DNA of 64,000 bases from Candidatus Aminicenantes bacterium (lineage in GTDB: Bacteria; Acidobacteriota; Aminicenantia; Aminicenantales; UBA4085). The notes under the pieces were generated by a model, which was given only the letters and a program-made list of their open reading frames with translations, was not told the DNA's origin and searched no databases. This document shows positions 13,656-60,198 of the stretch, one piece after another; position 1 is the first letter of the stretch, and each line of letters starts with the position of its first letter. Where the stretch lies: NCBI GenBank assembly GCA_030691735.1, contig JAUYDS010000079.1, positions 905 to 64,904 of the forward strand, given 5' to 3'. The position numbers and the translations under genes were made by a program.

Positions 13656-13669
13656 ATCGTTGCTGTCGA

Positions 13670-13704
13670 TTTTAGAGCGGAAAAGAGAAGTCTTGCGTCT
13701 TTCG
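13670..13704 (+). repeat. 35-bp repeat TTTTAGAGCGGAAAAGAGAAGTCTTGCGTCTTTCG (copy 1), followed by the hairpin TTCGGAGGG-ACG-CCCTCCGAA
   Basis: It is near-identical (two to three mismatches) to an inverted copy at 26731..26765. Confidence 0.7.
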
Positions 13705-16666: not shown

Positions 16667-16767
16667 GTCAAGGGACGAGCCTTCGGCTCGCCACTCGCCC
16701 GTGGCTTTTAACCACGGGCGAGTACGGCGGAAAGGACCCCCGGGCAAGCCCGGGGCCCCGGCCGCCG
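16667..16767 (+). repeat. GC-rich palindromic mini-element, long form with the extra hairpin module (copy B), intergenic
   Basis: The sequence is GTCAAGGGACGAGCCTTCG + GCTCGCCACTCGCCCGTGGCTTTTAACCACGGGCGAGTA + CGGCGGAAAGGACCCCCGGGCAAGCCCGGGGCCCCGGCCGCCG. Confidence 0.8.
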
Positions 16768-16789
16768 AGAAGGGATCCGGTCCCCCGCC

Positions 16790-20245: not shown

Positions 20246-20320
20246 GACGTGGCTAATCCCCCCTTCTCCCCCCTTTAGTAAAGGGGGGGAAGCGAGCCCC
20301 CCTTTTCTAAAGGGGGGATT
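20246..20320. terminator. GC-rich tandem-hairpin repeat element (copy 1) acting as a bidirectional terminator between convergent genes
   Basis: GACGTGGCTAATCCCCCCTTCTCCCCCCTTTAGTAAAGGGGGGGAAGCGAGCCCCCCTTTTCTAAAGGGGGGATT shares its first 33 nt with the copy at 23289. It abuts the stop of the purF-like gene. Confidence 0.65.
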
Positions 20321-23288: not shown

Positions 23289-23344
23289 GACGTGGCTAAT
23301 CCCCCCTTCTCCCCCCTTTATTAAAGGGGGGAGAAGGGGGGATT
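23289..23344. terminator. 47-bp perfect palindrome AATCCCCCCTTCTCCCCCCTTTA-T-TAAAGGGGGGAGAAGGGGGGATT preceded by the shared GACGTGGCT flank (copy 2)
   Basis: It lies downstream of the stop of the minus-strand M16 peptidase gene (23440). The stem is about 23 bp and perfect. Confidence 0.7.
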
Positions 23345-23439
23345 AGCATGGAGGTTGCCACGCTCCCTTCGGTCGCTCGCAACGACAAGAAAATTAACTA
23401 CTTCCCCTTTCTATCGGCAATTTCGGGGAGCGACACGGG

Positions 23440-26730: not shown

Positions 26731-26765
26731 CGAAAGACGCAAGACTTCTTTTTTCCGCTCTAAAA
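26731..26765 (-). repeat. 35-bp repeat (copy 2, inverted relative to copy 1 at 13670)
   Basis: CGAAAGACGCAAGACTTCTTTTTTCCGCTCTAAAA is the reverse complement of the 13670..13704 sequence. Confidence 0.7.
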
Positions 26766-26774
26766 ACGATCGGA

Positions 26775-36315: not shown

Positions 36316-37497
36316 ATGAGCGGTATTGTCGTGGCCAGCGCTGTCCGAACGGCCGGGGGAAAGTTCGGCGGCGCGATTTCCAAAATCTCAGCTGTCGATC
36401 TCGGGGCTCACGTCTTGGCAAGAGCCGTCAGCCAGGCGGGGATCGATCCGGGGCAGGTCGATGAAGTCGTCTTCGGGACGGGATGGCAGGCCGGGATCGG
36501 GCCGAATGTCGGACGGCTGGCCGCTGTCCGGGGGAAGCTGCCCTACGAAATTCCCGCCTTCACCGTCAACAAACGCTGCGGGTCTTCTCTGAAGGCCTTG
36601 ACCTTAGCTGTTCAGATGATCAAGGCCGGAGACGTGGATGTCGTCCTCGCGGGCGGGGCTGAAAACAGCTCCCAGGTGCCCTACATCGCCGAAGGCGCCC
36701 GATGGGGGAACCGCATGGGCGACAGCAAGCTGATCGACCTCCTTCATCGGGACGGTTTCATGTGTCCTCTAGCCGGGCATCTGATGGGCAACACGGCGGA
36801 GACCCTCGCCGAGAAGTACGACATCGGCCGCCAGGAGCAGGATGCTTTCGCCGCGGAAAGCCAGGAAAAAGCGGTCCGGGCCATCCGCGAGGGCAAGTTC
36901 AAGGAGGAAATCGTTCCCTTTGAAGTCCCCGGGAGCCCGAGTCAGGCCGAGATGTTCGATACGGACGAGATTCCGCGTGAGGGAGTGACCGTCGAAAAAC
37001 TGGCCAAACTTCCTCCTGTCTTTAAGAAAGACGGGACCGTGACCGCGGGGAACAGCTGCGCCCTCTGCGACGCCGCGGCAGCGGTTCTCGTCATGAGCGA
37101 GGAGAAGGCCGCGCGGCTCAAGGTCAAGCCGCTTGCCCGAATCGTCTCCTATGCTCACGCGGGCGTCGATCCCAAGATCATGGGCATCGGCCCCGTGCCC
37201 GCGATCAGGAAAGCCCTGGAGCGGGCCGGACTCCGGCTCGACGACATCGACCTCATCGAGCTCAACGAGGCCTTCGCCGTCCAGGTCCTGGCCGTCGAAC
37301 GGGAACTCCGCTGGGACCGGTCCAAGGTCAACGTCCATGGCGGAGCCATCGCCCTCGGCCATCCTGTGGGCGCCACGGGAGCGAAGATCTTCACCACGCT
37401 GGTCCACGCCCTGAGGGGCGGGGAAAAGAAGCTGGGTTTGGTCGGCCTGTGCATCGGCGGGGGCCAGGGAATCGCCGTCGTGGTGGAAAGGCTGTAG
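36316..37497 (+). CDS. Acetyl-CoA C-acetyltransferase (thiolase)
   Basis: The N-terminus MSGIVVASAVRTAGGKFGG, the thiolase Cys (NKRCGSSL) and the C-terminus GLCIGGGQGIAVVVE are all present. Confidence 0.9.
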   Translation: MSGIVVASAVRTAGGKFGGAISKISAVDLGAHVLARAVSQAGIDPGQVDEVVFGTGWQAGIGPNVGRLAAVRGKLPYEIPAFTVNKRCGSSLKALTLAVQMIKAGDVDVVLAGGAENSSQVPYIAEGARWGNRMGDSKLIDLLHRDGFMCPLAGHLMGNTAETLAEKYDIGRQEQDAFAAESQEKAVRAIREGKFKEEIVPFEVPGSPSQAEMFDTDEIPREGVTVEKLAKLPPVFKKDGTVTAGNSCALCDAAAAVLVMSEEKAARLKVKPLARIVSYAHAGVDPKIMGIGPVPAIRKALERAGLRLDDIDLIELNEAFAVQVLAVERELRWDRSKVNVHGGAIALGHPVGATGAKIFTTLVHALRGGEKKLGLVGLCIGGGQGIAVVVERL

Positions 37498-41738: not shown

Positions 41739-43001
41739 ATGACCAAGACGAAAAAAATCTTCGATCTCCCGGCAAACATCGCCGGAGGCGGACCGGCCCT
41801 GATGAAAGAAAAAAAGATGAAAATCGTTTTTCTTTCGGCCGTGCGAACCCCCTTCGGCGAGGCGGGGGGCTCGTTGAAAGACGTTTCCCCGATCGAGCTG
41901 GGAGCGTTGGCCGCCCGGGCGGCCATAAAAAGAGCCGGCCTCGAAGGCCGGGAAGAGTCCATCGATGAGGCGGTTTTCGGCAACGCCATGCCGGCCAGCA
42001 TTGATTCCCACTACGGGGCGCGCCACGTCGCCCTGAAAGCCGGGCTGAATTTTTTTACACCCGGCCTGACCGTCAACCGAATTTGTTTTTCGGGCGGCGA
42101 AGCCGTTATCCAGGGAGCCAAACAGCTCCTTCTGGAGGAAAGCCGGGTCGTGCTCGTGGGGGGCTATGAAAGCACGAGCCAATGCCCCGCGGTCCAGTTC
42201 GGTGCCGCTTTCGGATTTCCCTACATGGCGGGACCGAAGGTTTATTTTCTATTCAAAGACGGCCTGAACGACACTTATATCAACGACGACATGATGGGAA
42301 CGGCGGAGAATCTCGCCCGGCTTTACAGGATCACTCGCGCGGACGCCGACCGGATGGCCCTTTCTTCCCAACAGAAAGCGCAGGACGCCCGGCTCAAGGG
42401 CCGCTTGGCTAAAGAAATCGCCCCGGTCGTCCTGAAGACCAGAAAAGGAGAGGCCGTCATCGGCGAAGACGAGCATCCCAGGCCCGATACCACCTTCGAA
42501 CAGCTCTCCCGGCTGCACGCCGTGAAACCCGGGGGGATCCATACCGCCGGCAACTCCAGCGGTATCGTGGACGGAGCCGCGGCCTTGGTCATGTCCACGG
42601 AAAAGCGGGCCAAGGAGTTGGGCATCCCGCCCATCGGCGAGCTTCTTTCCTGGGGGACGGCGGCGGTCGATCCTCATTACATGGGGATCGGGCCCGTTCC
42701 CGCGTCGAAGATCGCCCTGGCCAGGGCCGGGATGGCCGTTGACGATTTGGATTTTATCGAGATCAACGAGGCGTTCGCCGGCCAGTATCTCGCCGTGGAG
42801 CGGGAATTGAAGCTGGACCGTTCCCGGGTCAACGTCAACGGAGGAGCCATCGCCCTGGGGCATCCGCTCGGTGCGACCGGTGCCCGTCTCGTCACCGCCC
42901 TGCTGACCCTGGGAGGGGTGGGGCTTGCCTCGGCCTGTATCGGCGGCGGCCAAGGAGGCGCGGTCATCATCCGAAGCTATGCGGACAAGGCGTCGATATA
43001 G
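41739..43001 (+). CDS. Thiolase (3-oxoacyl-CoA thiolase) with a roughly 26-aa N-terminal extension
   Basis: A GGGAGGAG RBS precedes the ATG at 41739. The thiolase core MKIVFLSAVRTPFG...CIGGGQGGAVIIRSY is present. Confidence 0.8.
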   Translation: MTKTKKIFDLPANIAGGGPALMKEKKMKIVFLSAVRTPFGEAGGSLKDVSPIELGALAARAAIKRAGLEGREESIDEAVFGNAMPASIDSHYGARHVALKAGLNFFTPGLTVNRICFSGGEAVIQGAKQLLLEESRVVLVGGYESTSQCPAVQFGAAFGFPYMAGPKVYFLFKDGLNDTYINDDMMGTAENLARLYRITRADADRMALSSQQKAQDARLKGRLAKEIAPVVLKTRKGEAVIGEDEHPRPDTTFEQLSRLHAVKPGGIHTAGNSSGIVDGAAALVMSTEKRAKELGIPPIGELLSWGTAAVDPHYMGIGPVPASKIALARAGMAVDDLDFIEINEAFAGQYLAVERELKLDRSRVNVNGGAIALGHPLGATGARLVTALLTLGGVGLASACIGGGQGGAVIIRSYADKASI

Positions 43002-46133: not shown

Positions 46134-47332
46134 TGAGAGAATCCATGGACGTGACCGATATCGTGGTCGTCGGTGGAATCCGGACGCCGATGGGGAAATT
46201 CGGCGGCGCCTTGAAGGATGTGGCGGCTTACGATTTGGGGGCGGCGGCGATTTCGGGAGTCTTGAAAAAAACCGGCCTCCCGGGCAAGGTCATCGATGAT
46301 GTCATCCTGGGAAGCTGTCGTCAGGCCGGAAACGGACCCAATCCTTCCCGCACGGCCATGGTCCGAGGAGGAATACCCGAAACCGTGCCGGCTTTGACCT
46401 TAAATATGGCCTGTCCGTCCGGGATGAGGGCCCTGGCCTTGGCCTCTCAAGCCATTCGCCTGGGGGAAGCCCAGGTCGTCCTCGTGGGAGGCTTCGACAG
46501 CATGAGCACGATACCTTACCTCCTCAAGGACGCTCGTTGGCAAGGATTCAAGATGGGCGACAAGGTGCTTCAGGACGGCTGGAGCGATTCGATCGACCCT
46601 CTCTGCAACTTAGGCATGGGCGAGACGGCCGAGAACCTTGCCGAGAAATACCAAATTTCGAGGCGGGAGCAGGATGAATTCGCCGCCTCCAGCCAGCAAA
46701 AAGCCGCCCGGGCCCAGGATGAAGGGTGGTTCGACGAGGAAATCGTTCCCGTCTCTGTCCCGCAGACGAAAGGAGATCCGCTGGCCTTTGGCCGGGATGA
46801 AACAATCCGCCGGGATACGACCGTGGACAGGCTGATGAAGCTGCCGCCCGTTTTCCGCAAGGACGGAAGCATCACGGCCGGAAACGCATGCCTGATGTCG
46901 GATGGGGCCGTGGCCCTGGTCGTCGCCTCTCGGTCGAAAGCTAAAGATCTAGGGTTGAAGCCGCTGTTTTCGCTCGTCTCTTACGCCCAATCCGCAGTGG
47001 ATCCCCGGTTTATGGGGGAAGGTCCGGCCGTAACGATTCCCCTGGCCTTGAACAAAGCGAAGATGACCCTGGCCGATGTCGACTTCATCGAGGTGAATGA
47101 GGCTTTTGCGGCCCAGGTCTTGGCCAACGAACGAATCCTCAAGTGGGACAGGGAACGACTCAACGTTCACGGCGGGGCGATCGCCCTCGGCCATCCCACG
47201 GGCATCAGCGGGGCCAGGATCTTGCTGACCCTGTACCATATCCTCAGGCTCCACGATGGAGAGACGGGCGTGGCCGGTATCTGCGGCGGGGGCGGAGTCA
47301 GCATGGCGGCGGTCATCCGGAGAGAGGGCTGA
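46133..47332 (+). CDS. Thiolase (acetyl-CoA acyltransferase), third copy in the cluster
   Basis: The thiolase signatures, with C-terminus GICGGGGVSMAAVI, are present. The start overlaps the upstream stop (TAATG). Confidence 0.85.
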   Translation: MRESMDVTDIVVVGGIRTPMGKFGGALKDVAAYDLGAAAISGVLKKTGLPGKVIDDVILGSCRQAGNGPNPSRTAMVRGGIPETVPALTLNMACPSGMRALALASQAIRLGEAQVVLVGGFDSMSTIPYLLKDARWQGFKMGDKVLQDGWSDSIDPLCNLGMGETAENLAEKYQISRREQDEFAASSQQKAARAQDEGWFDEEIVPVSVPQTKGDPLAFGRDETIRRDTTVDRLMKLPPVFRKDGSITAGNACLMSDGAVALVVASRSKAKDLGLKPLFSLVSYAQSAVDPRFMGEGPAVTIPLALNKAKMTLADVDFIEVNEAFAAQVLANERILKWDRERLNVHGGAIALGHPTGISGARILLTLYHILRLHDGETGVAGICGGGGVSMAAVIRREG

Positions 47333-47352: not shown

Positions 47353-47458
47353 GTCAAGGGACGAGCCTTCGGCTCGCCACTCGCCCGTGGCTTGTATCCA
47401 CGGGCGAGTACGGCGGAAGTGGACCCCCGGGCAATGCCCGGGGCCCCGGCCGCCGTGG
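47353..47458 (+). repeat. GC-rich palindromic mini-element, long form (copy C), filling the thiolase/Mo-hydroxylase intergenic gap
   Basis: It is near-identical to copy B, including the CACTCGCCCGTGG...CCACGGGCGAGTA hairpin module. Confidence 0.8.
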
Positions 47459-47468
47459 AGAAATAAAA

Positions 47469-48371
47469 TTGTCGCTCGACCGGGAGGCCGACATCGCATT
47501 CCACGCCCCCCAGACTCTGGCCGAAGCGCTCCGGCTCTTGGACGAGCTTGAGAACGCCCGGATCTTGGCCGGCGGGACAGACCTTCTGGTCGAGCTTCGA
47601 GAGGGCCGGGCAGAGGCCCGTAACCTCATCTCGATCCAAGACGTTGACGAGCTTAAAGGGATCAGAGAAAAGGGCGGCCGGGTCGAGATCGGGGCCTTGG
47701 CCACTCCCCGGGAGATAGCCGGCAACTCCCTGATCAATCGGCATAACCCGGCTTTGGCCCAGGCGGCCGGCGGGATGGCCTCTTCCCATATCCGGTCGAT
47801 GGCCACGATCGGAGGAAACATCGTCAGCGCGGTTCCCTCCGCGGACCTCCCTCCAGCCTTGATAGCGGCCGAGGCCGCTGTCCGGCTCGTGAGCTCGGCC
47901 GGAATCCGCGAAGTATCTCTTTCGGACTTTTTCACGAGTCCGAGGTGCACTGTCTGCGGAAGCGCGGAGATCCTTGCCGCGGCGATTTTCCCTCCGCCAC
48001 CGCCCGGGACAGGAATCTCCTGGGAGAGGTTTTCACTCCGCGAGTCCAACGCCCTGGCCGTCGCCGCCGTCGCGGCCTGCCTGACCATCCGGAAAGGAAC
48101 GATCGCCCGGGCCGCGGTCGTACTCGGAGCCGTGGCCCCGACCCCTCTGGCGGCGGTTAAAACCGCGGAATTTCTCTCCGGCCAAAAGCCTTCTACCGGC
48201 CTTTTTGCCGAAGCCGCTTCCCTGGCCGGGGAGGAATGCCGGCCGATTTCCGACATCCGAGGATCGGCCTGGTTTCGGAAGGAGATCGTCACGGTTCTGA
48301 CCCGGCGGGCCCTGGCCGGAGCCTTGGCTCGAGCCCAGGTGAACCAATCGGGAAGGAACGGCCCGGCTTGA
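47469..48371 (+). CDS. FAD-binding (CoxM/HcrB-like) subunit of a xanthine-dehydrogenase-family molybdenum hydroxylase; TTG start
   Basis: The FAD_binding_5 motifs AGGTDLLVEL and GGNIVSAVPSADL, plus the CO dehydrogenase flavoprotein C-domain, are present. Confidence 0.75.
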   Translation: MSLDREADIAFHAPQTLAEALRLLDELENARILAGGTDLLVELREGRAEARNLISIQDVDELKGIREKGGRVEIGALATPREIAGNSLINRHNPALAQAAGGMASSHIRSMATIGGNIVSAVPSADLPPALIAAEAAVRLVSSAGIREVSLSDFFTSPRCTVCGSAEILAAAIFPPPPPGTGISWERFSLRESNALAVAAVAACLTIRKGTIARAAVVLGAVAPTPLAAVKTAEFLSGQKPSTGLFAEAASLAGEECRPISDIRGSAWFRKEIVTVLTRRALAGALARAQVNQSGRNGPA

Positions 48372-51226
48372 CCCAAGACAAAGAATCCCATCGCACTGTC
48401 GTCCTCAGAGTCAACGGCGAAGATCATGCCGTGGCCGTTTACGATGAGGAAACTCTGCTGGACGTCCTCAGGGACAAGCTGAGACTGACCGGGACAAAAA
48501 AAGGCTGCGGCCGGGGCGTGTGCGGAGCCTGCACCGTCCTGGTGGACGGGGAGCCAAGGAACGGCTGTCTGCTGCTCGCCCTTTCCTGCCGGGGAAAAGA
48601 GATTACAACCATCGAAGGGATCGCCCGGGGAGGAGAACTCCACCCTCTTCAGCGCTCCTTCATCAACCACGGCGCCGTCCAATGCGGGTACTGCACGTCG
48701 GGGATGATCCTCAGCGCCTATGCCCTGATCCAACGCCGTCCGGATCCGACCGTCGAGGAAATCAAAGAGGCCCTCTCCGGAAACCTCTGCCGCTGCACGG
48801 GCTATGTCCGGATCATCGAGGCCGTTCGAGACTGGAAGAACCACCTGACGTCCGCCGGCCCAGAAACTTCCTCTCCAAACCTCGAGGAGCTCGCCGTCGT
48901 CGGGAAAAGCCTTCCGCGGGTGGATGCCGCCGACAAGGTCAGCGGCCGGGCCAAGTACGCGGCCGATCTTCATTTCGAAAACGTGCTCCACGGCAAGATT
49001 CTGACTTCTCCCATCGCCCACGGCCGGATCAGATCCATCGACACCAGCCGGGCGAAAGCCCTCCCGGGCGTCAAGCTGGTTCTCACCGGCCGGGACGTTC
49101 CGGATATCACCTATGGGATCAGCCCTCCCCGCTATGACGAGCATGTGCTGGCCAAGGACAAGGTGCGCCATGTCGGAGACGAGGTGGCGGCCGTCATCGC
49201 CGTGGACGAACGGACGGCGGAGAGGGCCTTGAGGCTCATCGACGTCGATTACGAAGAGCTCCCGGGGGTCTTCAATCCCAAGGAGGCGATGAGGGAAGGA
49301 GCCCCGCTGCTCCATGAACAATATAAAAGGAACATCAACACCCTTGTCGATCAGCATTTCGGTGACGTCGAAAAAGGCTTTGCCGAGGCCGACTACATCC
49401 GAGAGGAAGAATTCGTAGGGAACCACGTCTACCAGAGCCCCATCGAACCGCACGCCGCGATCGCCGACTGGGAAAACGACGGGACGACGCTCGTGCTGTA
49501 CAGCTCGACCCAGGTCCCTCATTACCTTCATTACACGGTCGCCCGGGTGCTGGACATGCCTTTGGGCCGGATCCGGGTCATCCGTCCCCCGGTGGGAGGA
49601 GGATTTGGAGGCAAGCTCGATACGACGCCTCTCGACCTGATCGCTTCGATCGCCTCGAAGAGGCTGGGCAGACCGGTCAAGATGGTCTACAGCCGGAAAG
49701 AGATGTTCCTCCACGGCCGGGGGCGGCACAAACAGCACATGAAGTTCAAGATCGGCGTAAAAAAAGACGGGACACTGACGGCTGTCGAAAGTCGGATCTA
49801 TCTCGACGGAGGGGCGTATACGTCCTATGGGGCGATCACGGCCTATTACGCCGGAAGCATGATTCCGACCCTGTACCGCATGCCGAACTACCGCTACCAG
49901 GGCTTCCGGGTCATGACCAACAAGCCCGCTTGCGGAGCCATGCGCGGCCACGGGGTTCCCCAACCGCGGTTCGCTTTCGAGTCCCTCCTGAGCATGATCG
50001 CCGACGATCTGGGCCTCGACCCCATCGAGATCCGCCTTCGCAATGCGGTCGGTCCCAACACCCGGACCTGCAACGACCTGGAGATCGGAAGCTGCGCCTT
50101 TCCCCAGACCTTGACGGCGGTGAGGGAAAAATCCGGCTGGTCGCAGAAGTATGGCCGGCTTCCTTCGGGAAAAGGAATCGGCGTCGGCTGCGGCGGTTTT
50201 GTCTCGGGAGCCGGCTACTCTAAATATAGGGGTCAGGTCCAGCTGAGCTCGGAAAAAAAGCTGGAGCCCTTCCAGAAAAAATCGGTCTTTCCCCATTCGA
50301 ACGCCATCGTCAAGATAAGCGAAGACGGGACGGCGGCCGTCCTGCTCATCCTGGCCGCAGAAATCGGGCAAGGCGCCCTGACCGTTCTGACCCAGATCTG
50401 CGCCGAAACTTTAGGGATCGGCTATGGGAGAGTCCGGATCCGGACGGAGGACACGGATATCAGTCCTCTCGACCTCGGGGCTTATTCCTCGCGCACGACC
50501 TTGATGGGGGGAAACGCGGTCGTCATGGCCAGCAAGGATCTCCTCCGGAAGCTGTTTTCCATTGTCGCCGGGATATGGGGTTCCGAGCCCAGCGATCTGC
50601 GGGCCGGAAACGACCGGATTTTTGACTGCCGGAACAGGTCGAAAAGCATCGACTGGGCGGAAGCGGCCCGGAAGTACTTCAACGACCACGGCCCCCTGGT
50701 CGGGACGGGCTGGTACAAGCCTCCGGATAACTTGGGCGGAGACTACAAAGGAGCCGCCGTAGGAACCAGTCCAGCCTTTTCTTTTTCGAGCGCCGTGTGC
50801 GAATGCCGCGTCGACCTGGAGACCGGCCAGGTGAAGCTGGAACGGTTCGTCGATTATCATGACTGCGGTACGCCTATCAACCCCCAGGCGGTCCACGGCC
50901 AGGTGGAGGGAGCGGTGGTCATGGGCGCGGGAGAAACCCTGATGGAGGATGTCGTCTACGATTCCCGGGGAAATATCCTCAATCCCAATCTCCACGACTA
51001 TCTGCTCATGACCATCGGGGACGCGCCGGAGATCTTCAGCGGTCTCGTCGATTCCTACGAGCCCGCGGGGCCTTACGGAGCCAAGGAGGTCGGCGAAGGC
51101 GCGACCCTCCCCGTCCTGGCGGCCGTGGCTCACGCTATCGCCAACGCGACCGGGGTATGGATCAAGGAACTGCCCATCACCCCGGAGAAAATCCTGAGAG
51201 CCCTTCGGGAAGCCGGAAGGCCCTGA
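48368..51226 (+). CDS. Fused [2Fe-2S] (CoxS-like) and molybdopterin-binding large (CoxL/HcrA-like) subunit of a molybdenum hydroxylase; TTG start overlapping the upstream stop
   Basis: The N-terminus has the 2Fe-2S motifs GCGRGVCGACTV and CRCTGYVRII. Downstream is the aldehyde oxidase/xanthine dehydrogenase a/b hammerhead and MoCo-binding domains of about 780 aa. Confidence 0.8.
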   Translation: MTQDKESHRTVVLRVNGEDHAVAVYDEETLLDVLRDKLRLTGTKKGCGRGVCGACTVLVDGEPRNGCLLLALSCRGKEITTIEGIARGGELHPLQRSFINHGAVQCGYCTSGMILSAYALIQRRPDPTVEEIKEALSGNLCRCTGYVRIIEAVRDWKNHLTSAGPETSSPNLEELAVVGKSLPRVDAADKVSGRAKYAADLHFENVLHGKILTSPIAHGRIRSIDTSRAKALPGVKLVLTGRDVPDITYGISPPRYDEHVLAKDKVRHVGDEVAAVIAVDERTAERALRLIDVDYEELPGVFNPKEAMREGAPLLHEQYKRNINTLVDQHFGDVEKGFAEADYIREEEFVGNHVYQSPIEPHAAIADWENDGTTLVLYSSTQVPHYLHYTVARVLDMPLGRIRVIRPPVGGGFGGKLDTTPLDLIASIASKRLGRPVKMVYSRKEMFLHGRGRHKQHMKFKIGVKKDGTLTAVESRIYLDGGAYTSYGAITAYYAGSMIPTLYRMPNYRYQGFRVMTNKPACGAMRGHGVPQPRFAFESLLSMIADDLGLDPIEIRLRNAVGPNTRTCNDLEIGSCAFPQTLTAVREKSGWSQKYGRLPSGKGIGVGCGGFVSGAGYSKYRGQVQLSSEKKLEPFQKKSVFPHSNAIVKISEDGTAAVLLILAAEIGQGALTVLTQICAETLGIGYGRVRIRTEDTDISPLDLGAYSSRTTLMGGNAVVMASKDLLRKLFSIVAGIWGSEPSDLRAGNDRIFDCRNRSKSIDWAEAARKYFNDHGPLVGTGWYKPPDNLGGDYKGAAVGTSPAFSFSSAVCECRVDLETGQVKLERFVDYHDCGTPINPQAVHGQVEGAVVMGAGETLMEDVVYDSRGNILNPNLHDYLLMTIGDAPEIFSGLVDSYEPAGPYGAKEVGEGATLPVLAAVAHAIANATGVWIKELPITPEKILRALREAGRP

Positions 51227-52384: not shown

Positions 52385-53038
52385 ATGAAAAGCGACATTC
52401 GACTGAAAATCGTCAGGATCCTTATCGATACTCCCGAGGGACTTCCGCTGGAGACTCTGGCCGCGGCCCTGGGCTTGACCCGCCATACGGTCGCCAAATA
52501 CGTGGAGGTCCTGAGGGCGGAGGGAAAGATCCGCTTCACTAAAATCGGGCGGTCGAAGCTTTGGAAAAGCATTTCCGCCCAAGTCGGTGTTCGGTTCCTG
52601 CGGCTGGACGATCTGGAAGACATTCTCCGCCTCGAGGAGAGGATCGAGAAGGCCGGTCCCTTTCCGTCAAAATCCCGGCTTGAGTCCTTGAGGGAGACGG
52701 TGGCCTACCATCTGCGGCAGGATGACCCGTTCCTGACCTTGGGGGCCGAAATCGACGGAAAGCTCGTAGGGTATGTCCTCGCCGAAGTCAGGCTTTGGGA
52801 GTTCGGGTCCGGGGAAAAAACCGGCTGGATCAAAGTCCTGGGCGTAGATCCGGATTGCCAGGGCATGGGGATCGGCCGCAAGCTGGGCGAAACCCTGCTC
52901 GGCCATTTCGCCAGGAAGGACGTCAAGCGGGTCAGGACTCTGGTCAACTGGTTTGACGGGCCCCTCATCTCCTATTTCCGGTCTCTAGGTTTTGACATCC
53001 TCAACATGATTCCCCTGGAGAAGGAGTTGACTAAATGA
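52385..53038 (+). CDS. Transcriptional regulator: N-terminal winged-helix HTH fused to a C-terminal GNAT acetyltransferase domain
   Basis: The N-terminus has LETLAAALGLTRHTVAKYVEVLRAEGKI (wHTH). The C-terminus has VLGVDPDCQGMGIGRKLGE (GNAT motif A). Confidence 0.7.
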   Translation: MKSDIRLKIVRILIDTPEGLPLETLAAALGLTRHTVAKYVEVLRAEGKIRFTKIGRSKLWKSISAQVGVRFLRLDDLEDILRLEERIEKAGPFPSKSRLESLRETVAYHLRQDDPFLTLGAEIDGKLVGYVLAEVRLWEFGSGEKTGWIKVLGVDPDCQGMGIGRKLGETLLGHFARKDVKRVRTLVNWFDGPLISYFRSLGFDILNMIPLEKELTK

Positions 53039-54159
53039 TGGACAGCTTCAAGGAATGGTACGAGGGCCGGCATCAGTACGCCCGGGAGTGGAAAAAACGG
53101 ACGGGGAAAAAGGTCCTCGGCTATTTCTGCACCTATGTCCCGGAGGAGATCCTCATCGCGGCCGATGTTCTTCCAGTCAGGATCCTCGGCAGCCACGAGC
53201 CCCAGGACGTGACCGAGCCCCATATCTTCGGGATGTTTTGTCCCTTCTGTCGGGACTGTCTCGCCCAGGGGCTCCAGGGAAGATACGAGTACCTCGACGG
53301 AATCATGATCAGCCAGAGCTGCCTTCATATCCGCCAGGCTTACACCTCCTGGAAGCTCCATGTCCCCGTGGAGTTCAGCTACTACCTGCCCATGCCCCAC
53401 CATCTTCAAAGCCGGCGAGCCCTCCCCTATTTGACGGGCGAGCTGGAGGCTTTCAAGAAGGCCGTGGAGGAATGGACGGGGACGACGATCACGGAGGAGG
53501 GGCTGAACCGCGGCATCGAGGTCATGAATCGGTCCCGGCGGCTGACCCGGGCGCTCTATGAGCTGCGCCGGAGGCCCGACCCGCCGGTGACGGGTTTAGA
53601 GTCCATGCGCGTGGTCGCGGCGAGCCAGATGGTCGATAAAAGGGAATACAACGAAGCCCTTCAGGAAACGATCGACCGGTTGCCGGAGCGGGCGGGAAGA
53701 GACGGGTCCCGGGTCCGGCTGATGATGCTGGGCAGCGAGAACGACGATGTCGCCTTCGTCGGAATGGTCGAATCCTTGGGAGCGATCTTCGTCATCGACG
53801 ACCACTGCACGGGGAGCCGCTATTTCTGGAACGAAGTCTTGACGGACCGGAAGCCGATGGAGTCCATCGCCGCCCGGTACGTCGACCGGGTTCCGTGCCC
53901 GACCAAGGACTGGCCGGAGCGGAAGCGGATCGAACACATCCGACAACTGGCCAAGGATTGGAACGTCCAGGGGGCGATTGTCGTCCAGCAGAAGTTCTGC
54001 GATCCTCATGAGATCGATATTCCCGCCATCATCAAGGCTCTTAAACAGGACGGCGTGCCCGCCCAAGTCCTGGAGATTGACGTGACGGTCCCCGTCGGTC
54101 AGTTCAAGACCCGGATCGAGGCGTTTTTGGAAATCCTGAAGCAAGAAGACCTGTTTTGA
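53035..54159 (+). CDS. Class I benzoyl-CoA reductase / 2-hydroxyacyl-CoA dehydratase-family subunit (BzdN/BcrC-like)
   Basis: It belongs to the HgdB/BcrC family (374 aa; N-terminus [40 protein letters not shown]). It is the first gene of a C-B-ATPase-ATPase-fdx module. Confidence 0.7.
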
Positions 54160-54169
54160 GGAGGCCTCG

Positions 54170-55480
54170 ATGAAGCCGACCTATAAAACCGAGCCGCTCC
54201 GATGCTGGGCCAAGGCCAAGGAGATCCGCCAAGATTACTATAAGAATTACGCCCTGGCCCATGAGAAGGGCGGCCTGCGCTGGGCCGGGGGAGCGTGGTC
54301 GTTCGACGCCATCCCCGCAGGCCTCGGCGATGACGTCTACCCCCTGACGGGCGAGCCGTACGCGGCCGCGATCGCCTGGGACAAGGAATTCGCCCTCCAG
54401 TGCCACGAGGCGGTCGAAAAAGCCGGATACGCCCGCGATCTATGCTCCTACATGCGCAACTACTGGGGGTCGATCATCCTCAATAAATATGTCTTCGGCG
54501 GAGAATTTCCGAAGCCGGACTTCATCTGGCAAGATCATATCTGTTGCTCTCATGCCAAATGGTATCAAGTGGTCCGGGATCTGGAAGGGAAGGATATCCC
54601 GATGTACTGCCTCGACGTCAGCGTCGGCCCTTACGAGGAGCTCACGGACAACCGGCTCGAATACGTCGTCGGCCAGATGCACGACGGGATCGCCTGGCTG
54701 GAGAAGGTGACCGGCCGGCGCTTCGATGACGAAAAGCTCATCCGGGCCGTGTCCAACCATTGCCGCTCCACCGCCCTCTGGGCCGAGGTCTGCGCTCTGA
54801 ACAAAGCCATCCCCGCTCCGCTGGACGAGAAGACGATGTATTCGCTCTATGTCCTCGGAACCCTGCAGAAGAGCAGCGGCATCGTAGCGGACTTTACCGA
54901 GGAGCTCCGGGACGAAGTCAAGGATCGGGTCGCCAGAGGGATCGCCGCGGTTCCCAACGAACGGTGCCGGGTCATGTCTGACACCCAGCCTCCCTGGGCC
55001 TTCTTGAAGATCTTCCGATACCTGGAGCAATACGGCTGCGTCTCGGTCGGCTCCCTCTATACGTTCGGCCTGATCGGGCAATGGGAGGTCAAGGCCGACG
55101 GGACCTGGGGCGCCCGGACGACGCCGGAGCAGCAGGGAATCGTGATCCGGGACCGGGATCAGGCTCTTCGAATCCTGGCCGACTGGGAATTGAAAAAACC
55201 GGAATGGCAGCATTTTTATTCTCCCCAAGCCAAAAGCGAGATGATGATCCGGATCGCCAAGGAATGGACGCTCGACGGCGTCCTCCTCCATTACAACCGG
55301 GGCTGCGAAGGCTTGAGCCTGGGAATCGCCGAAAACCGGCTGGCCATGATCAAGGCGGGCTACCCGGTCATCGTTTTCGAGGGCAATATGGGGGACGAGA
55401 GGGAGTTCGACGAAATCCAGACTCTGAAACGGATCGACGCTTTTATGGAAAGCCTGGGGTTCGAAAAGGATTCCCGATGA
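54170..55480 (+). CDS. Class I benzoyl-CoA reductase family subunit (BzdO/BcrB-like)
   Basis: It belongs to the HgdA/BcrB family (436 aa) with conserved Cys residues. It directly follows the BzdN-like gene. Confidence 0.7.
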
Positions 55481-55529
55481 CTCATCGCCGGGAGCGAGGA
55501 GGCGGGCCGGGAAAGTCTTGCGGGCCAAC

Positions 55530-55597
55530 GTCAAGGGACGAGCCTTCGCGGCGGAAGTGGACCCCCGGGCAAAGCCCGGGGCCCCGGCCGCCGTGGC
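55530..55597 (+). repeat. GC-rich palindromic mini-element, short form (copy D), upstream of the ATPase gene
   Basis: GTCAAGGGACGAGCCTTCGCGGCGGAAGTGGACCCCCGGGCAAAGCCCGGGGCCCCGGCCGCCGTGG. Confidence 0.8.
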
Positions 55598-55634
55598 CCC
55601 GGCCGCCGCTGCCCCGGATGGACTGGAGGAAGGC

Positions 55635-56414
55635 ATGAATGTCGCCGGAGTGGATTGCGGGGCGAAGTCGGCCAAGGTTCTCATCCTGAGGGACGGGGAG
55701 GTCTTGGCTAGAAGTGCGGTCCTCAGCGGATTCGATCCGAAGGCCGCGGCGGCCCAGGCCTTGGACGAGGCCTTGATACAGGCCGGACTCTCGAGGAGCG
55801 ACCTGGCCCATGTGACGGCCACCGGAACAGGGAAGAACGAGGTGGATTTCGCCTCCTCCTCGATCACCGAGGTCGGCGCCGATGCCCGGGCCGCAAACGC
55901 CCTGTTTCCGGCCGCCCGGACCGTGATCGACATCGGGGCGGAGGAAGGACGGGCGATCCGGATCAGCCCGCAGGGAAAGGTGATCGATTTCGCCATCAAC
56001 GAGAAGTGCGCCGCCGGAGCCGGCACGTTCACCGAAACCATGGCCAGGACGCTCGAGGTCGCCGTGGAAGACATGGGCCCGCTCTCTCTCAAGTCTCAGA
56101 ACGCCGTCCCGATGAACGCCCAATGCGCCGTCTTCGCCGAGTCCGAGGTGGTCAGCCTCATCCACGCCAAGCATTCCAAGGAGGATATCGCCCGGGCGGT
56201 TCACGACGCCATCGCGGACAGGATCGCGTCCATGGCTCGGAAGATCGGGATCGAGAAGGATATCGTCCTCGTCGGCGGGGTGGCAAAGAACGTGGGCTTC
56301 GTGACCTCCTTGAAACGAAATCTGAAGGAAGAGCTGTTCATCCCCCCTTACCCCGAATATTCCTGCGCCCTGGGAGCCGCCCTCACGGCCGCCGAACGGG
56401 CCAAAGGAGTCTGA
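55635..56414 (+). CDS. BadF/BadG/BcrA/BcrD-type ATPase (benzoyl-CoA reductase electron-activating subunit, BzdP/Q-like)
   Basis: An ATG at 55635 has a GGAGGA RBS. The motifs GVDCGAKSAKVLIL, AINEKCAAGAGTF and LVGGVAKNVGFV match the acetate/sugar-kinase ATPase fold. The tool ORF start at the TTG 55518 inside the repeat was rejected. Confidence 0.75.
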   Translation: MNVAGVDCGAKSAKVLILRDGEVLARSAVLSGFDPKAAAAQALDEALIQAGLSRSDLAHVTATGTGKNEVDFASSSITEVGADARAANALFPAARTVIDIGAEEGRAIRISPQGKVIDFAINEKCAAGAGTFTETMARTLEVAVEDMGPLSLKSQNAVPMNAQCAVFAESEVVSLIHAKHSKEDIARAVHDAIADRIASMARKIGIEKDIVLVGGVAKNVGFVTSLKRNLKEELFIPPYPEYSCALGAALTAAERAKGV

Positions 56415-56415
56415 C

Positions 56416-57288
56416 ATGGCCACAGAATATTGGCGCTGGCCCGAATCCCGGTGGACCTCGCCGGAGATCGATTGGAAAGCCGGCCGCATCGTCACCGCCG
56501 GAATCGACGTCGGTTCGGTGAGCTCCCAGGCCGTGGTCATGGTCGACGGCGCGCTGTTCTGCTACGGCAGCCTGCGGACCGGGTCTAACAGCCCGGAAAG
56601 CGCCCAACGGGCGATGGATTTTGCCCTGGCCGAAACCGGCTTGGTCCTTGCCGACATCCACTATATCGTCGGGACGGGATACGGCCGGGTCAATATCTCC
56701 TTCGCCCAGAGGGCCCTGACCGAGATCGCCTGCCATGCCCGGGGCGCGAATTTCATGTACGGGCCGACGGTCAAGACCATCCTGGACATGGGCGGGCAGG
56801 ATTGCAAGGCCATCCGCTGCGACGCCAAGGGGAAAGTGACCAACTTCCTGATGAACGACAAATGCGCGGCCGGGACGGGCCGGGGGATGGAAGTGTTTGC
56901 CGACCTTTTGTCCGTCCCCATCGCCGACATGGGGCGTATGTCGTTCGAGGTGGAGGCCGAGCCCGAGCCCGTCAGCTCCACCTGCGTCGTGTTCGCCAAA
57001 TCCGAGGCCGTGGGCCTCTTGAGGAAAGGCTGGCCGAAGGAAAAGGTCCTGGCCGCTTATTCCTCGGCCATGGCCCACCGCGTCGTCGAGCTTTTGCAGC
57101 GCATCCAGGTAGAAGAGGATTTCGCCGTCACCGGCGGCATCGCCAAGAACGAAGGCGTGGTCAAGAGAATCGAAAAGGAGCTGAAAATAAAGGCCCTCGA
57201 ACCCAAGTTCGACACCCAGATCGCGGGCGCCCTGGGCGGCGCGTTATTCGCTAAGGCCCTCGTCGAGAAGGACAGGGGGCTCCGCTAG
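56416..57288 (+). CDS. Second BadF/BadG/BcrA/BcrD-type ATPase subunit
   Basis: The motifs GIDVGSVSSQAVVM, MNDKCAAGTGRGME and VTGGIAKNEGVV are present. It is distinct from the upstream ATPase, consistent with a heterodimeric BCR alpha/delta pair. Confidence 0.75.
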   Translation: MATEYWRWPESRWTSPEIDWKAGRIVTAGIDVGSVSSQAVVMVDGALFCYGSLRTGSNSPESAQRAMDFALAETGLVLADIHYIVGTGYGRVNISFAQRALTEIACHARGANFMYGPTVKTILDMGGQDCKAIRCDAKGKVTNFLMNDKCAAGTGRGMEVFADLLSVPIADMGRMSFEVEAEPEPVSSTCVVFAKSEAVGLLRKGWPKEKVLAAYSSAMAHRVVELLQRIQVEEDFAVTGGIAKNEGVVKRIEKELKIKALEPKFDTQIAGALGGALFAKALVEKDRGLR

Positions 57289-57289
57289 C

Positions 57290-57577
57290 ATGCTGGCCCA
57301 CTACGGATATAAGGACGGCTCGGGAGAGTATTTCATCGTCGTCGACACGGACAAGTGCGACGGATGCGGCCGCTGCGTCTCCGCCTGTCCCTACGGAGTT
57401 TTCGAAATCGGCGAGGACGAAAACGACCCCTTCCGCGAGACGGTCGTGGTCAAAGTCTCCGAATCCCACCGTAAGAAAATCAAATACAGCTGCGCGCCCT
57501 GCAAACCCGTCTCCGGAAAAAAATCCCTGCCCTGCCTCGAAAGCTGTGCTCCGGGCGCGATCGGTCACTCCTGGTGA
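57290..57577 (+). CDS. 2x[4Fe-4S] ferredoxin of the benzoyl-CoA reductase type (Fdx/BzdM-like)
   Basis: The 95-aa product has the Cys patterns CDGCGRCVSACP and the atypical CAPC-x10-C-x3-C. Confidence 0.75.
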   Translation: MLAHYGYKDGSGEYFIVVDTDKCDGCGRCVSACPYGVFEIGEDENDPFRETVVVKVSESHRKKIKYSCAPCKPVSGKKSLPCLESCAPGAIGHSW

Positions 57578-60198
57578 GAGGACAGAACCAAGTGGCCTCC
57601 CGATCGCCGGGATCGGGCCGGAAATTCCTCCTGGACGGGAAGGCCGTCGAGGCCGCGGAGGGCCGGACCATCCTGCAGGCCGCTCTCGCCGCCGGGATCT
57701 ATATTCCCCATCTCTGCCATCATCCGGACCTGCCGCCCTTCGAGACGATTCCCCCCCTGGAGACATGCTACCGGGGTTCCGAGGTTTTCCGTTCGGCAGG
57801 GCGCGGTCACACTTATACGGGCTGCGGGCTCTGCTTGGTCAAGATCTCCGGTCGCGAGGAGCCGGTCCTCTCCTGCACGCACGTCGCCGAGGACGGGATC
57901 GAGGTTGTGACCTCGACCCCGGAGATCGCGTCCGCTCGTCAGAAAAAACTGGCCGCGCTGATGATCCGCCATCCGCACGCTTGTCTGACCTGCGCCCAGC
58001 GGGAAGGATGCAGCTTGACCCAGTGCTCGTCCAACGTCCCCGAGGCGGAGAGGTGCTGTCCCCGGTTCGATCATTGTGAGCTGAGAAGCCTGGCCGAGTA
58101 CGTCGGCCTCAGCCAGGACCTTTCCCGATATCGTTTCCGCGGTGAGGTCGCGGAAATGCAAGGGCCCCTCTTTATCCGGGACTACAACCTCTGCGTCGGC
58201 TGCCTGCGGTGCGTCCGGGTCTGCGAATCCGTGATCGGCGCCAAGGCCTTGGGGTACGTATCGGCCGCGGACGGAGAGATTATGGTGGGCGCCTCGAAGC
58301 CTTCCTGGGATGAGGCGGGGTGCCGGTCCTGCGGCGCGTGCGTCGAGGTTTGCCCGACCGGCGCGCTGCGCGATAAAAACCTCAAGCCCGGCGACCGGAA
58401 AGCGTCTCTAATCGCCTGCGTCTCCGGCTGCCCCTTGGCCATGGATGTCCCCTCCTATCTGAACTTCATCGCTCAGGGCAGACCGGCAGAAGCGGCGGCC
58501 GTCATCCGGCGGAGCGTTCCACTCGCCCTGACGCTTGGATACATCTGCTCCCATCCCTGCATGACCGAATGCCGCCGGGGGAAGATCGATGAGTCCATCG
58601 CCATCTGCGAGCTCAAGAGGTTCGCCCTGGAGCAAGCAGACTCGCCGGTCAAGGGACGAGCCTTCGCGACGGAAGTGGACCCCCGGGCAAAGCCCGGGGC
58701 CCCGGCCGCCGTGGAAAAGGCGGAACGCAAGCCGACGGGAAAGAAGGTCGCCGTCATCGGAGGGGGACCGGCCGGCCTCGTGGCCGCTTCTTATCTGGCG
58801 AATGGCGGCCACTCCATCAAGGTCTTTGAAGCGAGTTCGGAGCCGGGAGGAATGCTGCGCTGGGCGATCCCCGAATACCGGCTCCCGCGGAGCGTCGTCG
58901 CTGGAGAGATCGAACTTGTCAAGGCTCAGGGGGTCGAGATTCTGACCGGGGCACGGGTTGACAGAGAGACGTTCCTCAGGGATTTCGGCCCCGGCTCCTG
59001 GGACGCGGTTTTTCTCGCGGTCGGCGCTCAGGAGAGCAGAGGGATCGACATCGAAGGTCAAGACCTGGAGGAAGTCGGTAAGGGGGTGGAGTTTCTCCGG
59101 GAGGCCAAAGCGGGAACGATCGAGAAAATCAGCGGAAGAGTCGTGGTCATCGGCGGGGGAAACGTCGCCCTGGACGCGGCCATGACGGCCCTCCGGCTCG
59201 GAGCTTCCACTGTCGAGCTGGCCTGCTTAGAAAGCCGGGACGAGATGCCGGCGTTCGCTTGGGATGTCCGGGAAGCCGAGGAGGACGGGGTAGTGCTGAA
59301 TCCAGGTTGGGGGCCCTCCCGGATCGTCGGACGGGAAGGCCGGGCCGCCGCGGTCGAGCTTATCGGTTGTGTTTCGGTCTTCGATGAACAAGGAAATTTC
59401 CGCCCGAAATTCGATCCCGCTCGACGGAAGACTCTCCCGGCCGATCGCGTCGTCTTGGCCGTCGGGCAGCGGCCCGATCTTTCGTTTCTTCCTCCGGATC
59501 TGGGAGTCCGGTTGACGAAGGCGGGGACAATCCAGGTCAGCCCCCTGAATCTCCAAACGAGCGTGCCTTGGATCTTCGCCGGAGGCGAGGTTACTCTCGG
59601 ACCGTCCTCGGCCGTGGAATCCATGGCCTTGGGACGGCAGGCCGCCTCGTCGATCGATCGTTTCTTGGGAGGTGAGGGGCTGGGCTCGGCGCCGAACGGG
59701 GCCGGGAAGGCCGGCCGGGGAGACCTGTGGCTGGGCCATGATCCCGGTTTCGGCTCGAGGCGCAGAGTGCCCAGCCGCCGCCTCCTTCGAGCGGAACGCC
59801 TGAAATCTTTCGACCTCGTCCAGGGAAGCTATGAGCCGGACGAGGCCCGCCGGGAAGCAGGCCGGTGCTTGAGGTGCGAACTCAGGTTCGCCCTTTCGCC
59901 CGTCTGCCTTCCTCCTGAAAAATGGATAGAGTTCCGCCTGGATTCGATGTCCGAGGTTCCCGAAGTGGAGGGCGTTTTTCAGCTTTCAGATGAGCGGAGA
60001 AACGTGATTTTCATCGCCGGAACGCCCAACCTCAGGCGGACCCTTCTCGAACACCTGTCCGCCGGTTCGGAAGCCCATTATTTTCTCTATGAAAAGAACC
60101 CGATGTTCACCAAAAGGGAAAGCGAATGGATTCAGCAGTTCCTTCAGAAACACGGCCGCCTTCCGCCGAAGAACGAAGAGGTCGACGAGTTGTTCTAG
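57574..60198 (+). CDS. Fused Fe-S / FAD-NAD(P)H oxidoreductase (NuoG-like 2Fe-2S and 4Fe-4S N-terminus, GltD/SudA-like C-terminus); candidate ferredoxin-regenerating BzdV-like enzyme; GTG start
   Basis: The N-terminus has 2Fe-2S fer2_4 (CHHPDL...CGLCLV) and several CxxCxxCxxxCP motifs. The C-terminus has KKVAVIGGGPAGLVAASYLA and a pyridine-nucleotide disulfide oxidoreductase fold. The linker contains repeat copy E in-frame. Confidence 0.7.
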   Translation: MRGQNQVASRSPGSGRKFLLDGKAVEAAEGRTILQAALAAGIYIPHLCHHPDLPPFETIPPLETCYRGSEVFRSAGRGHTYTGCGLCLVKISGREEPVLSCTHVAEDGIEVVTSTPEIASARQKKLAALMIRHPHACLTCAQREGCSLTQCSSNVPEAERCCPRFDHCELRSLAEYVGLSQDLSRYRFRGEVAEMQGPLFIRDYNLCVGCLRCVRVCESVIGAKALGYVSAADGEIMVGASKPSWDEAGCRSCGACVEVCPTGALRDKNLKPGDRKASLIACVSGCPLAMDVPSYLNFIAQGRPAEAAAVIRRSVPLALTLGYICSHPCMTECRRGKIDESIAICELKRFALEQADSPVKGRAFATEVDPRAKPGAPAAVEKAERKPTGKKVAVIGGGPAGLVAASYLANGGHSIKVFEASSEPGGMLRWAIPEYRLPRSVVAGEIELVKAQGVEILTGARVDRETFLRDFGPGSWDAVFLAVGAQESRGIDIEGQDLEEVGKGVEFLREAKAGTIEKISGRVVVIGGGNVALDAAMTALRLGASTVELACLESRDEMPAFAWDVREAEEDGVVLNPGWGPSRIVGREGRAAAVELIGCVSVFDEQGNFRPKFDPARRKTLPADRVVLAVGQRPDLSFLPPDLGVRLTKAGTIQVSPLNLQTSVPWIFAGGEVTLGPSSAVESMALGRQAASSIDRFLGGEGLGSAPNGAGKAGRGDLWLGHDPGFGSRRRVPSRRLLRAERLKSFDLVQGSYEPDEARREAGRCLRCELRFALSPVCLPPEKWIEFRLDSMSEVPEVEGVFQLSDERRNVIFIAGTPNLRRTLLEHLSAGSEAHYFLYEKNPMFTKRESEWIQQFLQKHGRLPPKNEEVDELF
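58648..58713 (+). repeat. GC-rich palindromic mini-element, short form (copy E), in-frame inside the BzdV-like gene
   Basis: GTCAAGGGACGAGCCTTCGCGACGGAAGTGGACCCCCGGGCAAAGCCCGGGGCCCCGGCCGCCGTGG is translated as [22 protein letters not shown]. Confidence 0.8.

Follow-up and report, generated by a model that had tools for sequence, protein, structure and literature searches.

Repetitive extragenic palindromic (REP) sequences and bacterial interspersed mosaic elements (BIMEs), which are known from enterobacteria and Pseudomonas and are linked to REP-associated tyrosine transposases (RAYTs), are high-copy imperfect palindromes that form mosaics of modules, lie mostly between genes, are conserved across related species, and leave no target-site duplication. 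According to PMC10969869, which cites Ogata 2000 and 2002, Rickettsia palindromic elements (RPEs) are integrated, without loss of frame, in a large number of unrelated genes in a manner compatible with the fold of the host protein. Intragenic MITEs (miniature transposable elements with inverted repeats), among them ERIC, Correia/NEMIS, and those of Anabaena, are small non-autonomous repeats that occasionally form in-frame fusions with host open reading frames (ORFs) (PMC10969869). Here, we analyzed a 66-bp repeat copy at positions 58648-58713 (+) of a 64,000-nucleotide stretch of Candidatus Aminicenantes contig JAUYDS010000079.1 (this whole stretch is hereafter called the window). The copy lies inside a gene encoding a putative oxidoreductase next to benzoyl-CoA reductase genes. 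Our analysis makes it very probable that the segment represents one copy of a common Aminicenantes repeat, non-autonomous and rich in hairpins, and that this copy landed in a linker of the oxidoreductase and is translated, tolerated, and apparently not needed.

The element (GTCAAGGGACGAGCCTTCGCGACGGAAGTGGACCCCCGGGCAAAGCCCGGGGCCCCGGCCGCCGTG) spans 22 codons and is a short-form copy of an interspersed palindromic repeat. It is full length in that it carries both the 5' module (GTCAAGGGACGAGCCTTCG) and the 3' module (CGGCGGAAGTGGACCCCCGGGCAAAGCCCGGGGCCCCGGCCGCCGT) of the family, and it agrees with the family consensus at 65 of 66 positions. As the initial annotation had proposed from the sequence, it recurs in the window: the copy at 55530-55595 differs from it by one mismatch in 66, with 0 matches expected by chance (100 shuffles). 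The single departure from consensus had been described as an A to C change and is instead G to A at position 58669, which turns GCG GCG into GCG ACG and Ala into Thr. The resulting GCGACGG is private to this copy among the 88 copies listed (the family has at least 88). A codon of the ORF at 57574-60198 begins at position 58648, since (58648 - 57574)/3 = 358, and the insert forms residues 359-380. The frame is preserved, as had been annotated, with 58648 opening codon 359 of an intact ORF of 874 amino acids (aa). The only strong hairpin remaining in the short form, at 58681-58699, has an 8-bp G+C stem and an AAA loop (CCCCGGGC-AAA-GCCCGGGG; centroid -10.6 kcal/mol with DNA parameters); taken whole, the short form folds no better than shuffled sequences (z = -0.34).

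Comparison with orthologous loci revealed both empty and filled sites. The collections searched held four close relatives, namely P0002/L001, the near-identical L081, L082, and P0003/L002, whose synonymous distance (dS) from the window is 0.15 for L082, 0.15-0.23 over L001, L081, and L082, and 0.31 for L002. Three of the four (L001, L081, and L082) have an empty site, with a single C where the window has 64 bp. Their junction reads GCCGG-C-GGAAAAGGCGGAA (CCGG-C-GGAAAAGG), versus GCCGG-TCAAGG...CCGCCGT and the same flank in the window. Relative to the empty sites, the inserted DNA is thus 64 bp (58649-58712) in place of one C. Because the net gain is 63 bp and this frame contains no stop codon, the insert is translated as 22 extra residues. 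The fourth relative, L002, carries a 27-nt remnant (GTCAAGGAACAGGCCTGGGCGGAGGAA) that starts from the identical nucleotide. It matches the 5' module of the repeat at 21 of 27 positions, versus only 8 of 15 for a comparison with the L001 linker, and it is reproduced by a 51-bp deletion extending from GCGGCGGAA in the element to AAGGCGGAA in the flank, followed by decay. In this remnant, 6 of 27 positions have diverged and 17 codons are gone. The segment is absent from all homologues at 45-60% identity, many of which are Asgard archaeal, and no orthologue encodes the 22 residues from non-repeat DNA; the existence of such an orthologue is what the initial annotation had named as contrary to its proposal. 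Three of the more distant homologues (P0023, P0024, and P0047) carry unrelated longer linkers at the same place, indicating that the linker tolerates changes in length.

The sibling copy at 55530-55610 is missing from all four relatives, as judged from L001:1-240, L002:3110-3320, L081, and L082. At this site, L002 reads CAACG-C-GGCCCC and the window reads CAACG-[TCAAGG..CCGT]-GGCCCC. The junction is again one in which a single C has been replaced, and the site provides a second clean pair of filled and empty sequences. About 50 nt at the site are common to the window and L002 and missing in L001, L081, and L082. Presence/absence polymorphism at orthologous sites was thus seen at two sites (58648 and 55530), and neither of these two filled/empty pairs has a target-site duplication, G-C-GG becoming G-[64 bp]-GG.

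The gene that received the element is intact. Its ORF has no stops and no frameshifts. In an alignment of 78 homologues, the window protein keeps the residue of every invariant column, among them the Cys ligands and the glycines of nucleotide binding. Ratios of nonsynonymous to synonymous substitution (dN/dS) against the four relatives were 0.31-0.44, and by this measure the gene is under purifying selection. The NCBI entry P0001, from a Candidatus Aminicenantes metagenome-assembled genome (MAG), is 100% identical to the host protein and is annotated as an intact coding sequence for an FAD-dependent oxidoreductase. The pseudogene that would have spoken against the initial annotation was thus not found. 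The annotation had also placed the insert between the Fe-S domains and a GltD-like FAD/NAD(P)H domain, and Pfam agrees, with Fer4_20 at residues 281-356 and Pyr_redox_2 at residues 390-685. An AlphaFold model built on the 78-sequence alignment had a mean predicted local distance difference test score (pLDDT) of 86 and a predicted template modelling score of 0.83. In this model, residues 358-381, corresponding to the insert, form a low-confidence coil (pLDDT <50) flanked by a helix (344-356) and a strand (391-395). The 22 inserted residues are therefore probably disordered, as far as the model goes. Tolerance of the insert by the host enzyme is supported, and we infer that the oxidoreductase is made and active with the insert in place.

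Other genes also carry the repeat in frame. A copy was called intragenic when both 240-nt flanks were coding in the same frame, according to a codon-usage model trained on long ORFs of the fetched loci, and when that frame was open through the element. By this rule, 8 of ~71 evaluable sites (~11%) were in-frame intragenic sites, with hosts confirmed by Pfam (Table 1). Insert lengths were multiples of three at all eight, and intergenic copies include ones of 101-104 bp. All six sense copies are read in frame +0 (VKGRAF...) and both antisense copies in frame -1. The short form is open in five of its six frames, and the eight intragenic sites occupy two of these five, which by hand calculation has P ~0.007 or less. 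The used frames encode Ala-rich peptides without Cys or Trp; the unused ones are rich in Arg, Gly, and Pro or include Cys, His, or Trp. A model in which the frame bias follows from the phase of a GCSGA target fitted the sense copies (62% of motifs in phase 0) but not the antisense pair (19% phase) and was rejected. The second intragenic copy of the window, at 5725-5934, lies in the same phase as the 58648 copy, between the DUF3131 (1019-1113) and Glycoamylase (1273-1482) domains of its host. It has the 5' module twice, a hairpin 2 of variant sequence, and one additional hairpin, and its 3' 12-mer is duplicated.

Distribution of the family was analyzed by scanning one genome per species for the exact 19-mer GTCAAGGGACGAGCCTTCG, which was found at 78 or more loci in at least 14 MAG assemblies. 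With six exact matches in the window and at least 82 in these loci, the family numbers at least 88 copies. The window matches start at 5725, 5752, 16667, 47353, 55530, and 58648, all on the + strand, and place the repeat at five sites; together with a seventh match at 3 mismatches, 7 were found versus 0.06 expected by chance. Among the matches listed, nearly all assemblies were labelled Aminicenantes or were evidently Aminicenantes MAGs under other labels. One canonical long form (L041, JAPLSM010000184.1) lies on a 9-kb contig of a Spirochaetes-labelled MAG; the Lac Pavin sample behind this MAG also yielded an Aminicenantes MAG, and the contig is probably mis-binned.

The long form measures 105 bp and the short form 66 bp, both multiples of three. 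The short form equals the long form minus an internal 39 bp (GCTCGCC...GAGTA), which complete hairpin 1 and add hairpin 2 with its 12-bp stem. Folding of the long form as single-stranded DNA gave three hairpins (-43.1 kcal/mol, z = -6.2), and mean column identity over 36 long-form copies was 95%. Composite arrays of repeat modules were common among the copies listed. Judged by eye, the 5' end (GTCAAGGGAC) bears only a loose similarity to the 3' end taken as its reverse complement (TCGACGGCGG), and the two do not make convincing terminal inverted repeats. Inspection by eye of the 5' flanks of the 88 listed copies, for which no logo or statistic was computed, revealed no shared motif. Intergenic copies had no orientation bias in a hand tally, the upstream coding flank being on the same strand in 18 cases and on the opposite strand in 19. 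An Rfam scan of a long-form copy matched no family (best score of 19.5 bits versus a threshold of 67.9), and our literature search found no paper describing Aminicenantes repeats of this kind.

Resident copies appear to turn over quickly. Two pairs of orthologous loci with flanks 88-96% identical (L057:662-768 versus L067:6137-6206, and L012:6946-7052 versus L070:3738-3796) have the long form in one species and a short variant in the other, with ~86% identity and different hairpin-3 sequences. Judging from these alignments, resident copies are exchanged or rebuilt in place more quickly than the sequence around them diverges. Near-identity to the consensus can therefore mean either recent arrival or homogenization, and it cannot serve as a clock. 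The initial annotation had read some age into the single substitution of the 58648 copy, a reading that such turnover undercuts.

The repeat also leaves traces in protein databases. In a search with the 57-aa peptide of the long plus short repeat, no hit exceeded 100 aa and no host proteins were listed; most of the ORFs retrieved are spurious translations of repeat copies that lie between genes or at contig ends. Dozens of 'hypothetical proteins' of 40-100 aa (P0121-P0204) are translated repeat, many of them 'partial' entries at contig ends of one MAG (Q8O91_*). The repeat is fragmenting the assembly of this MAG and generating spurious gene calls.

Set against the described systems, the Aminicenantes repeat is closest in architecture to REPs and BIMEs, with which it shares modular hairpins, mosaics, and the lack of target duplication. 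REPs are extragenic by definition, whereas the 58648 copy and those at seven other sites lie inside ORFs and are translated, and the 5' end of the repeat is not a GTAG-type REP head. It resembles MITEs in being small, non-autonomous, and occasionally fused in frame with an ORF. MITEs, however, have terminal inverted repeats and target-site duplications, whereas the two Aminicenantes pairs have one base replaced and no duplication. In behavior, the likeness is to RPEs. Both are short palindromic repeats found in frame in unrelated genes, with a conserved peptide in a preferred frame, at sites tolerated by the fold, and with intergenic copies as well. The Aminicenantes family inserts in frame into several unrelated genes with a recurrent peptide frame. 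It is palindromic through its long form, the short form keeping the one 8-bp hairpin, and the insert studied here is a coil between confidently modelled domains, in a linker of variable length among homologues. The differences are that the Aminicenantes host is free-living, uncultured, and high in G+C, and is not Rickettsia; that the repeat begins with an unrelated 5' module (GTCAAGGGACGAGCC...); that its modular units, of 66 or 105 bp, are shorter than RPEs (~100-150 bp); and that ~11% of its copies are intragenic, versus nearly half in some RPE families. By analogy, the likeness rests on behavior, and common descent with RPEs is unlikely given the taxon and the sequence. The repeat is best filed as a new family analogous to RPEs, being neither a REP, since it is not confined to extragenic DNA, nor a MITE, since it lacks the duplication.

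In-frame palindromic repeats in genes have hitherto been described as a peculiarity of Rickettsia, and a second, unrelated family would change that. The hosts include the core genes ligA and nuoN, together with the putative redox partner of an aromatic-ring reductase that is sensitive to oxygen. That the family hits such genes suggests that DNA of this kind can generally be harboured safely in loops and in the linkers between domains, which would also be a source of variation in protein length. In practice, repeats of this kind break MAG assemblies, inflate counts of 'hypothetical proteins', and mimic lineage-specific insertions in alignments and structure models.

We propose that a repeat copy landed in the variable-length linker joining the Fer4_20 Fe-S domain to the FAD/NAD(P) Rossmann domain. 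The insertion would add 22 Ala, Pro, Gly, and charged residues as a predicted disordered loop and leave the catalytic domains untouched. The repeat may have spread in trans through a hairpin-recognizing enzyme that makes no target duplication, for example a RAYT or an enzyme of the IS200/IS605 type, although we hold this only tentatively and consider it somewhat doubtful. A Y1/HUH enzyme with precise excision would fit, because the empty sites are clean. Several points weigh against the reading of a mobile, tolerated insert. No mobilizing enzyme was found; the ~20 window ORFs scanned, which are not an exhaustive set, included no transposase family, and no search directed at RAYTs was made. No transposase family has a one-base replacement at the junction as its textbook signature. 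The 36 long-form copies gave no excess of covariation over shuffles and vary mainly by broken pairs, and the compensatory differences seen, by eye, are only between subfamily variants of hairpins 2 and 3. Since the canonical copies show no excess covariation, the hairpins are a property of the consensus, and selection on them in each copy is unsupported. The window is from a MAG, and transcription, translation, and activity of the host are predicted. Finally, the L002 remnant begins at the identical nucleotide, and the history of the site is therefore more complex than a single recent hit.

Two histories could explain this remnant, and both need two events. The site may have been occupied already in the ancestor of the window and L002 (dS ~0.3), the copy then having been lost cleanly in L001, L081, and L082, partly deleted in L002, and refreshed by conversion in the window, for which the copy 3.1 kb upstream is one possible donor; we would put the chance of this at just under even. 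The shared start nucleotide and the closer match of the remnant to the 5' module than to the L001 linker argue for it, as do the 51-bp deletion that yields the remnant and the ~50 nt at the 55530 site common to the window and L002 and missing in the L001/L082 clade. The in-situ exchange of long and short forms at other orthologous loci adds to this, and the 5' flanks of the 88 listed copies hold no motif, by eye and with no statistic, that would favor two hits at one base. However, a rooted neighbor-joining tree with 300 bootstraps gave (L002,(window,(L082,L001))), with 283/300 support for the inner clade, so that early occupancy demands a precise in-frame loss. It must also invoke conversion, because only 1 substitution is seen where 4-10 would be expected in 66 nt (hand calculation). 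A recent second hit, in which the 58648 and 55530 copies arrived recently from the same master and the L002 remnant stems from an older independent insertion at a preferred target, has in our estimate a reasonable chance that nonetheless stays below one half. It would account for two window copies that differ at 1 of 66 positions and are both absent from L001, L081, and L082, and for the near-perfect agreement of the 58648 copy with the consensus in a family whose single copies otherwise outpace their flanks in decay or restructuring; G-C-GG at both empty sites hints at a target preference. Its cost is two insertions at the identical nucleotide, with a target motif drawn from two sites only.

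The initial annotation had offered that the enzyme tolerates or has domesticated the insert. Tolerance stands, on the intact ORF and the dN/dS values. Domestication, in which the 22 residues would be functional (in Fe-S/flavin spacing, flexibility, or as a docking site) and kept by selection on the protein, is very improbable. The preserved frame, the 65/66 identity to the consensus, and the family-wide preference of intragenic copies for one peptide frame would agree with it; yet neither the three nearest orthologues nor any other homologue has the segment, its pLDDT below 50 predicts disorder, the L002 remnant has diverged and lost codons, and what the copy matches is a DNA repeat found mainly between genes, so that conservation of the peptide is explained at the DNA level. 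The annotation's description of the enzyme as essential is an assumption. That the insert is instead an artefact of mis-assembly at a repeat, or that the gene is dead, is scarcely credible. Repeats do break the assembly of this MAG, and the many 'partial' contig-end hypothetical proteins carry the repeat peptide, but both flanks continue the same orthologous gene in frame, which excludes a chimeric join, and in-frame copies occur in other genes from independent MAGs; a dead gene is contradicted by the absence of stops and frameshifts, the kept invariant residues, and the dN/dS of 0.31-0.44. A broader reading, which we regard as unlikely, would make the repeat an RPE-like system of 'protein-coding selfish DNA' across the whole of Aminicenantia, with either an undescribed frame- or target-specific mobilization or gene conversion, or a benefit from a ready-made linker peptide. 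If this were true, such a mechanism or benefit would be called for by the frame-neutral sizes (66/105 bp, net +63), the use of about one sense and one antisense frame, the odd junction, and the ~95% identity, which is kept among 14 or more species-level genomes of lake, peat, permafrost, and aquifer origin.

The host protein has the domain order Fer2_4, 2x[4Fe-4S], Fer4_20, Pyr_redox_2 (GltD/NfnB-like), and DUF7508. Its GltD/NfnB-like part consists of Fer4_20 (Pfam E = 2.6e-14) followed by Pyr_redox_2 (E = 5.5e-32), a module shared with NfnB/GltD flavoproteins (PDB 5jca_L, 4ylf_B, 9n5u_A, 8oh5_C, and 9bov_A). The PDB relatives retrieved were 9bov_A (E = 2.5e-98), NfnI 5jca_L (E = 1e-55), and also 8oh5_C, NfnA/NfnI. 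Beyond the NfnB/GltD type, the host has in addition a NuoG/HydA-like N-terminal Fe-S region, which precedes the NfnB/GltD module, and the C-terminal DUF7508. Full-length homologues that keep this domain order, at 45-49% identity, occur widely among Asgard archaeal MAGs (Hod-, Heimdall-, Thor-, and Promethearchaeota) and also among Bathyarchaeia.

The benzoyl-CoA reductase context given by the initial annotation was confirmed, with bzdN, bzdO, and bzdQ all scoring above the NCBIfam equivalog cut-offs (Table 1). The synteny of bzdNOPQ, ferredoxin, and host gene is also found in L001 and L002, and downstream of the host gene lie a Had-like dehydrogenase gene and an enoyl-CoA hydratase gene. In the bzd cluster of Azoarcus, bzdV encodes a putative NADPH:ferredoxin oxidoreductase (PMC5658619). 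Because the host gene directly follows bzdN, bzdO, the bzdP-like gene, bzdQ, and the ferredoxin gene, a BzdV-like role in ferredoxin reduction is a reasonable reading, plausible from gene context; its placement after bzdNOPQ and ferredoxin parallels that of bzdV after bzdM, with the function of the host being a prediction.

Table 1 Repeat copies, host gene, and neighboring genes (positions are those of the window unless a locus is named)
Feature	Position	Strand	Evidence or remark
Short-form repeat copy, translated as residues 359-380 of the oxidoreductase (insert 22 aa)	58648..58713	+	matches consensus 65/66
Private substitution, A (consensus G), Ala to Thr	58669	+	comparison with 88 listed copies
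8-bp stem/AAA loop hairpin	58681..58699	+	folding, DNA parameters
Sibling short-form copy plus duplicated 3' 12-mer, intergenic between bzdO and bzdP-like	55530..55610	+	sequence comparison
Long-form copy, intergenic between nrdR and lon (both - strand)	16667..16772	+	sequence match
Long-form copy, three hairpins, 20 nt downstream of thiolase gene	47353..47460	+	fold -43.1 kcal/mol, z = -6.2
Composite copy, 210 bp, in GH94/NdvB-like glucan synthase, 2840 aa	5725-5934	+	insert 70 aa
LigA with a copy, adenylation domain split in two	L031:3202-5445		insert 61 aa
NuoN-like Proton_antipo_M with a copy, split in two	L029:128-1750	-	insert 35 aa
DPP-IV/S9 peptidase (DPPIV_N) with a copy	L037:458-3256	-	insert 22 aa
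Copy in GNAT-like protein	L014		insert 22 aa
Copy in LptD_N protein	L017		antisense copy
Copy in PD40 propeller protein	L030		antisense copy
Host oxidoreductase gene, 874 aa, intact	57574..60198	+	Pfam, NCBI coding sequence, dN/dS
Fer4_20 domain, residues 281-356, directly upstream of insert	58414..58641	+	Pfam; AlphaFold helix 344-356
Pyr_redox_2 FAD/NAD(P)-binding domain, residues 390-685, directly downstream of insert	58741..59628	+	Pfam; AlphaFold strand 391-395
bzd-type benzoyl-CoA reductase genes plus ferredoxin, upstream of host	53035..57577	+	NCBIfam
bzdN	53035-54159	+	TIGR03190, 475 bits (equivalog cut-off 453.8)
bzdO	54170-55480	+	TIGR03191, 717 bits (equivalog cut-off 448.6)
bzdP-like ATPase	55635-56414	+	adjoins bzdQ
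bzdQ	56416-57288	+	TIGR03192, 432 bits (equivalog cut-off 380.2)
2x[4Fe-4S] ferredoxin	57290-57577	+	stop overlaps host-gene start by 4 nt

Upstream of the bzd genes, a single 996-aa ORF at 48236-51226 encodes a 4-hydroxybenzoyl-CoA-reductase-like enzyme with its gamma (2Fe-2S) and alpha (molybdopterin) subunits fused; its alpha part scores slightly below the equivalog cut-off (890.7 versus 994.55 bits). The window also holds other repeats. A different palindromic repeat of 43-57 nt (GCTAATCCCCCCTTCTCCCCCCTTTAnTAAAGGGGGG...) is present in two copies ~3 kb apart, at 20246-20300 and 23289-23347. We considered these copies as the flanks of a transposase and rejected this, since they bracket only GATase-like and cation-efflux genes, with no transposase between them. 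A 39-nt inverted repeat, 95% complementary, has its arms 13 kb apart at 13666-13704 and 26731-26769, one of them just downstream of lon. Diverged direct repeats of 62-72% identity occur with a spacing of 4-5.5 kb at 37159-37401, 42660-42902, and 46991-47233 (also at 36784-36929 and 46616-46761); they are probably paralogous genes, such as genes for thiolases or acyl-CoA enzymes.

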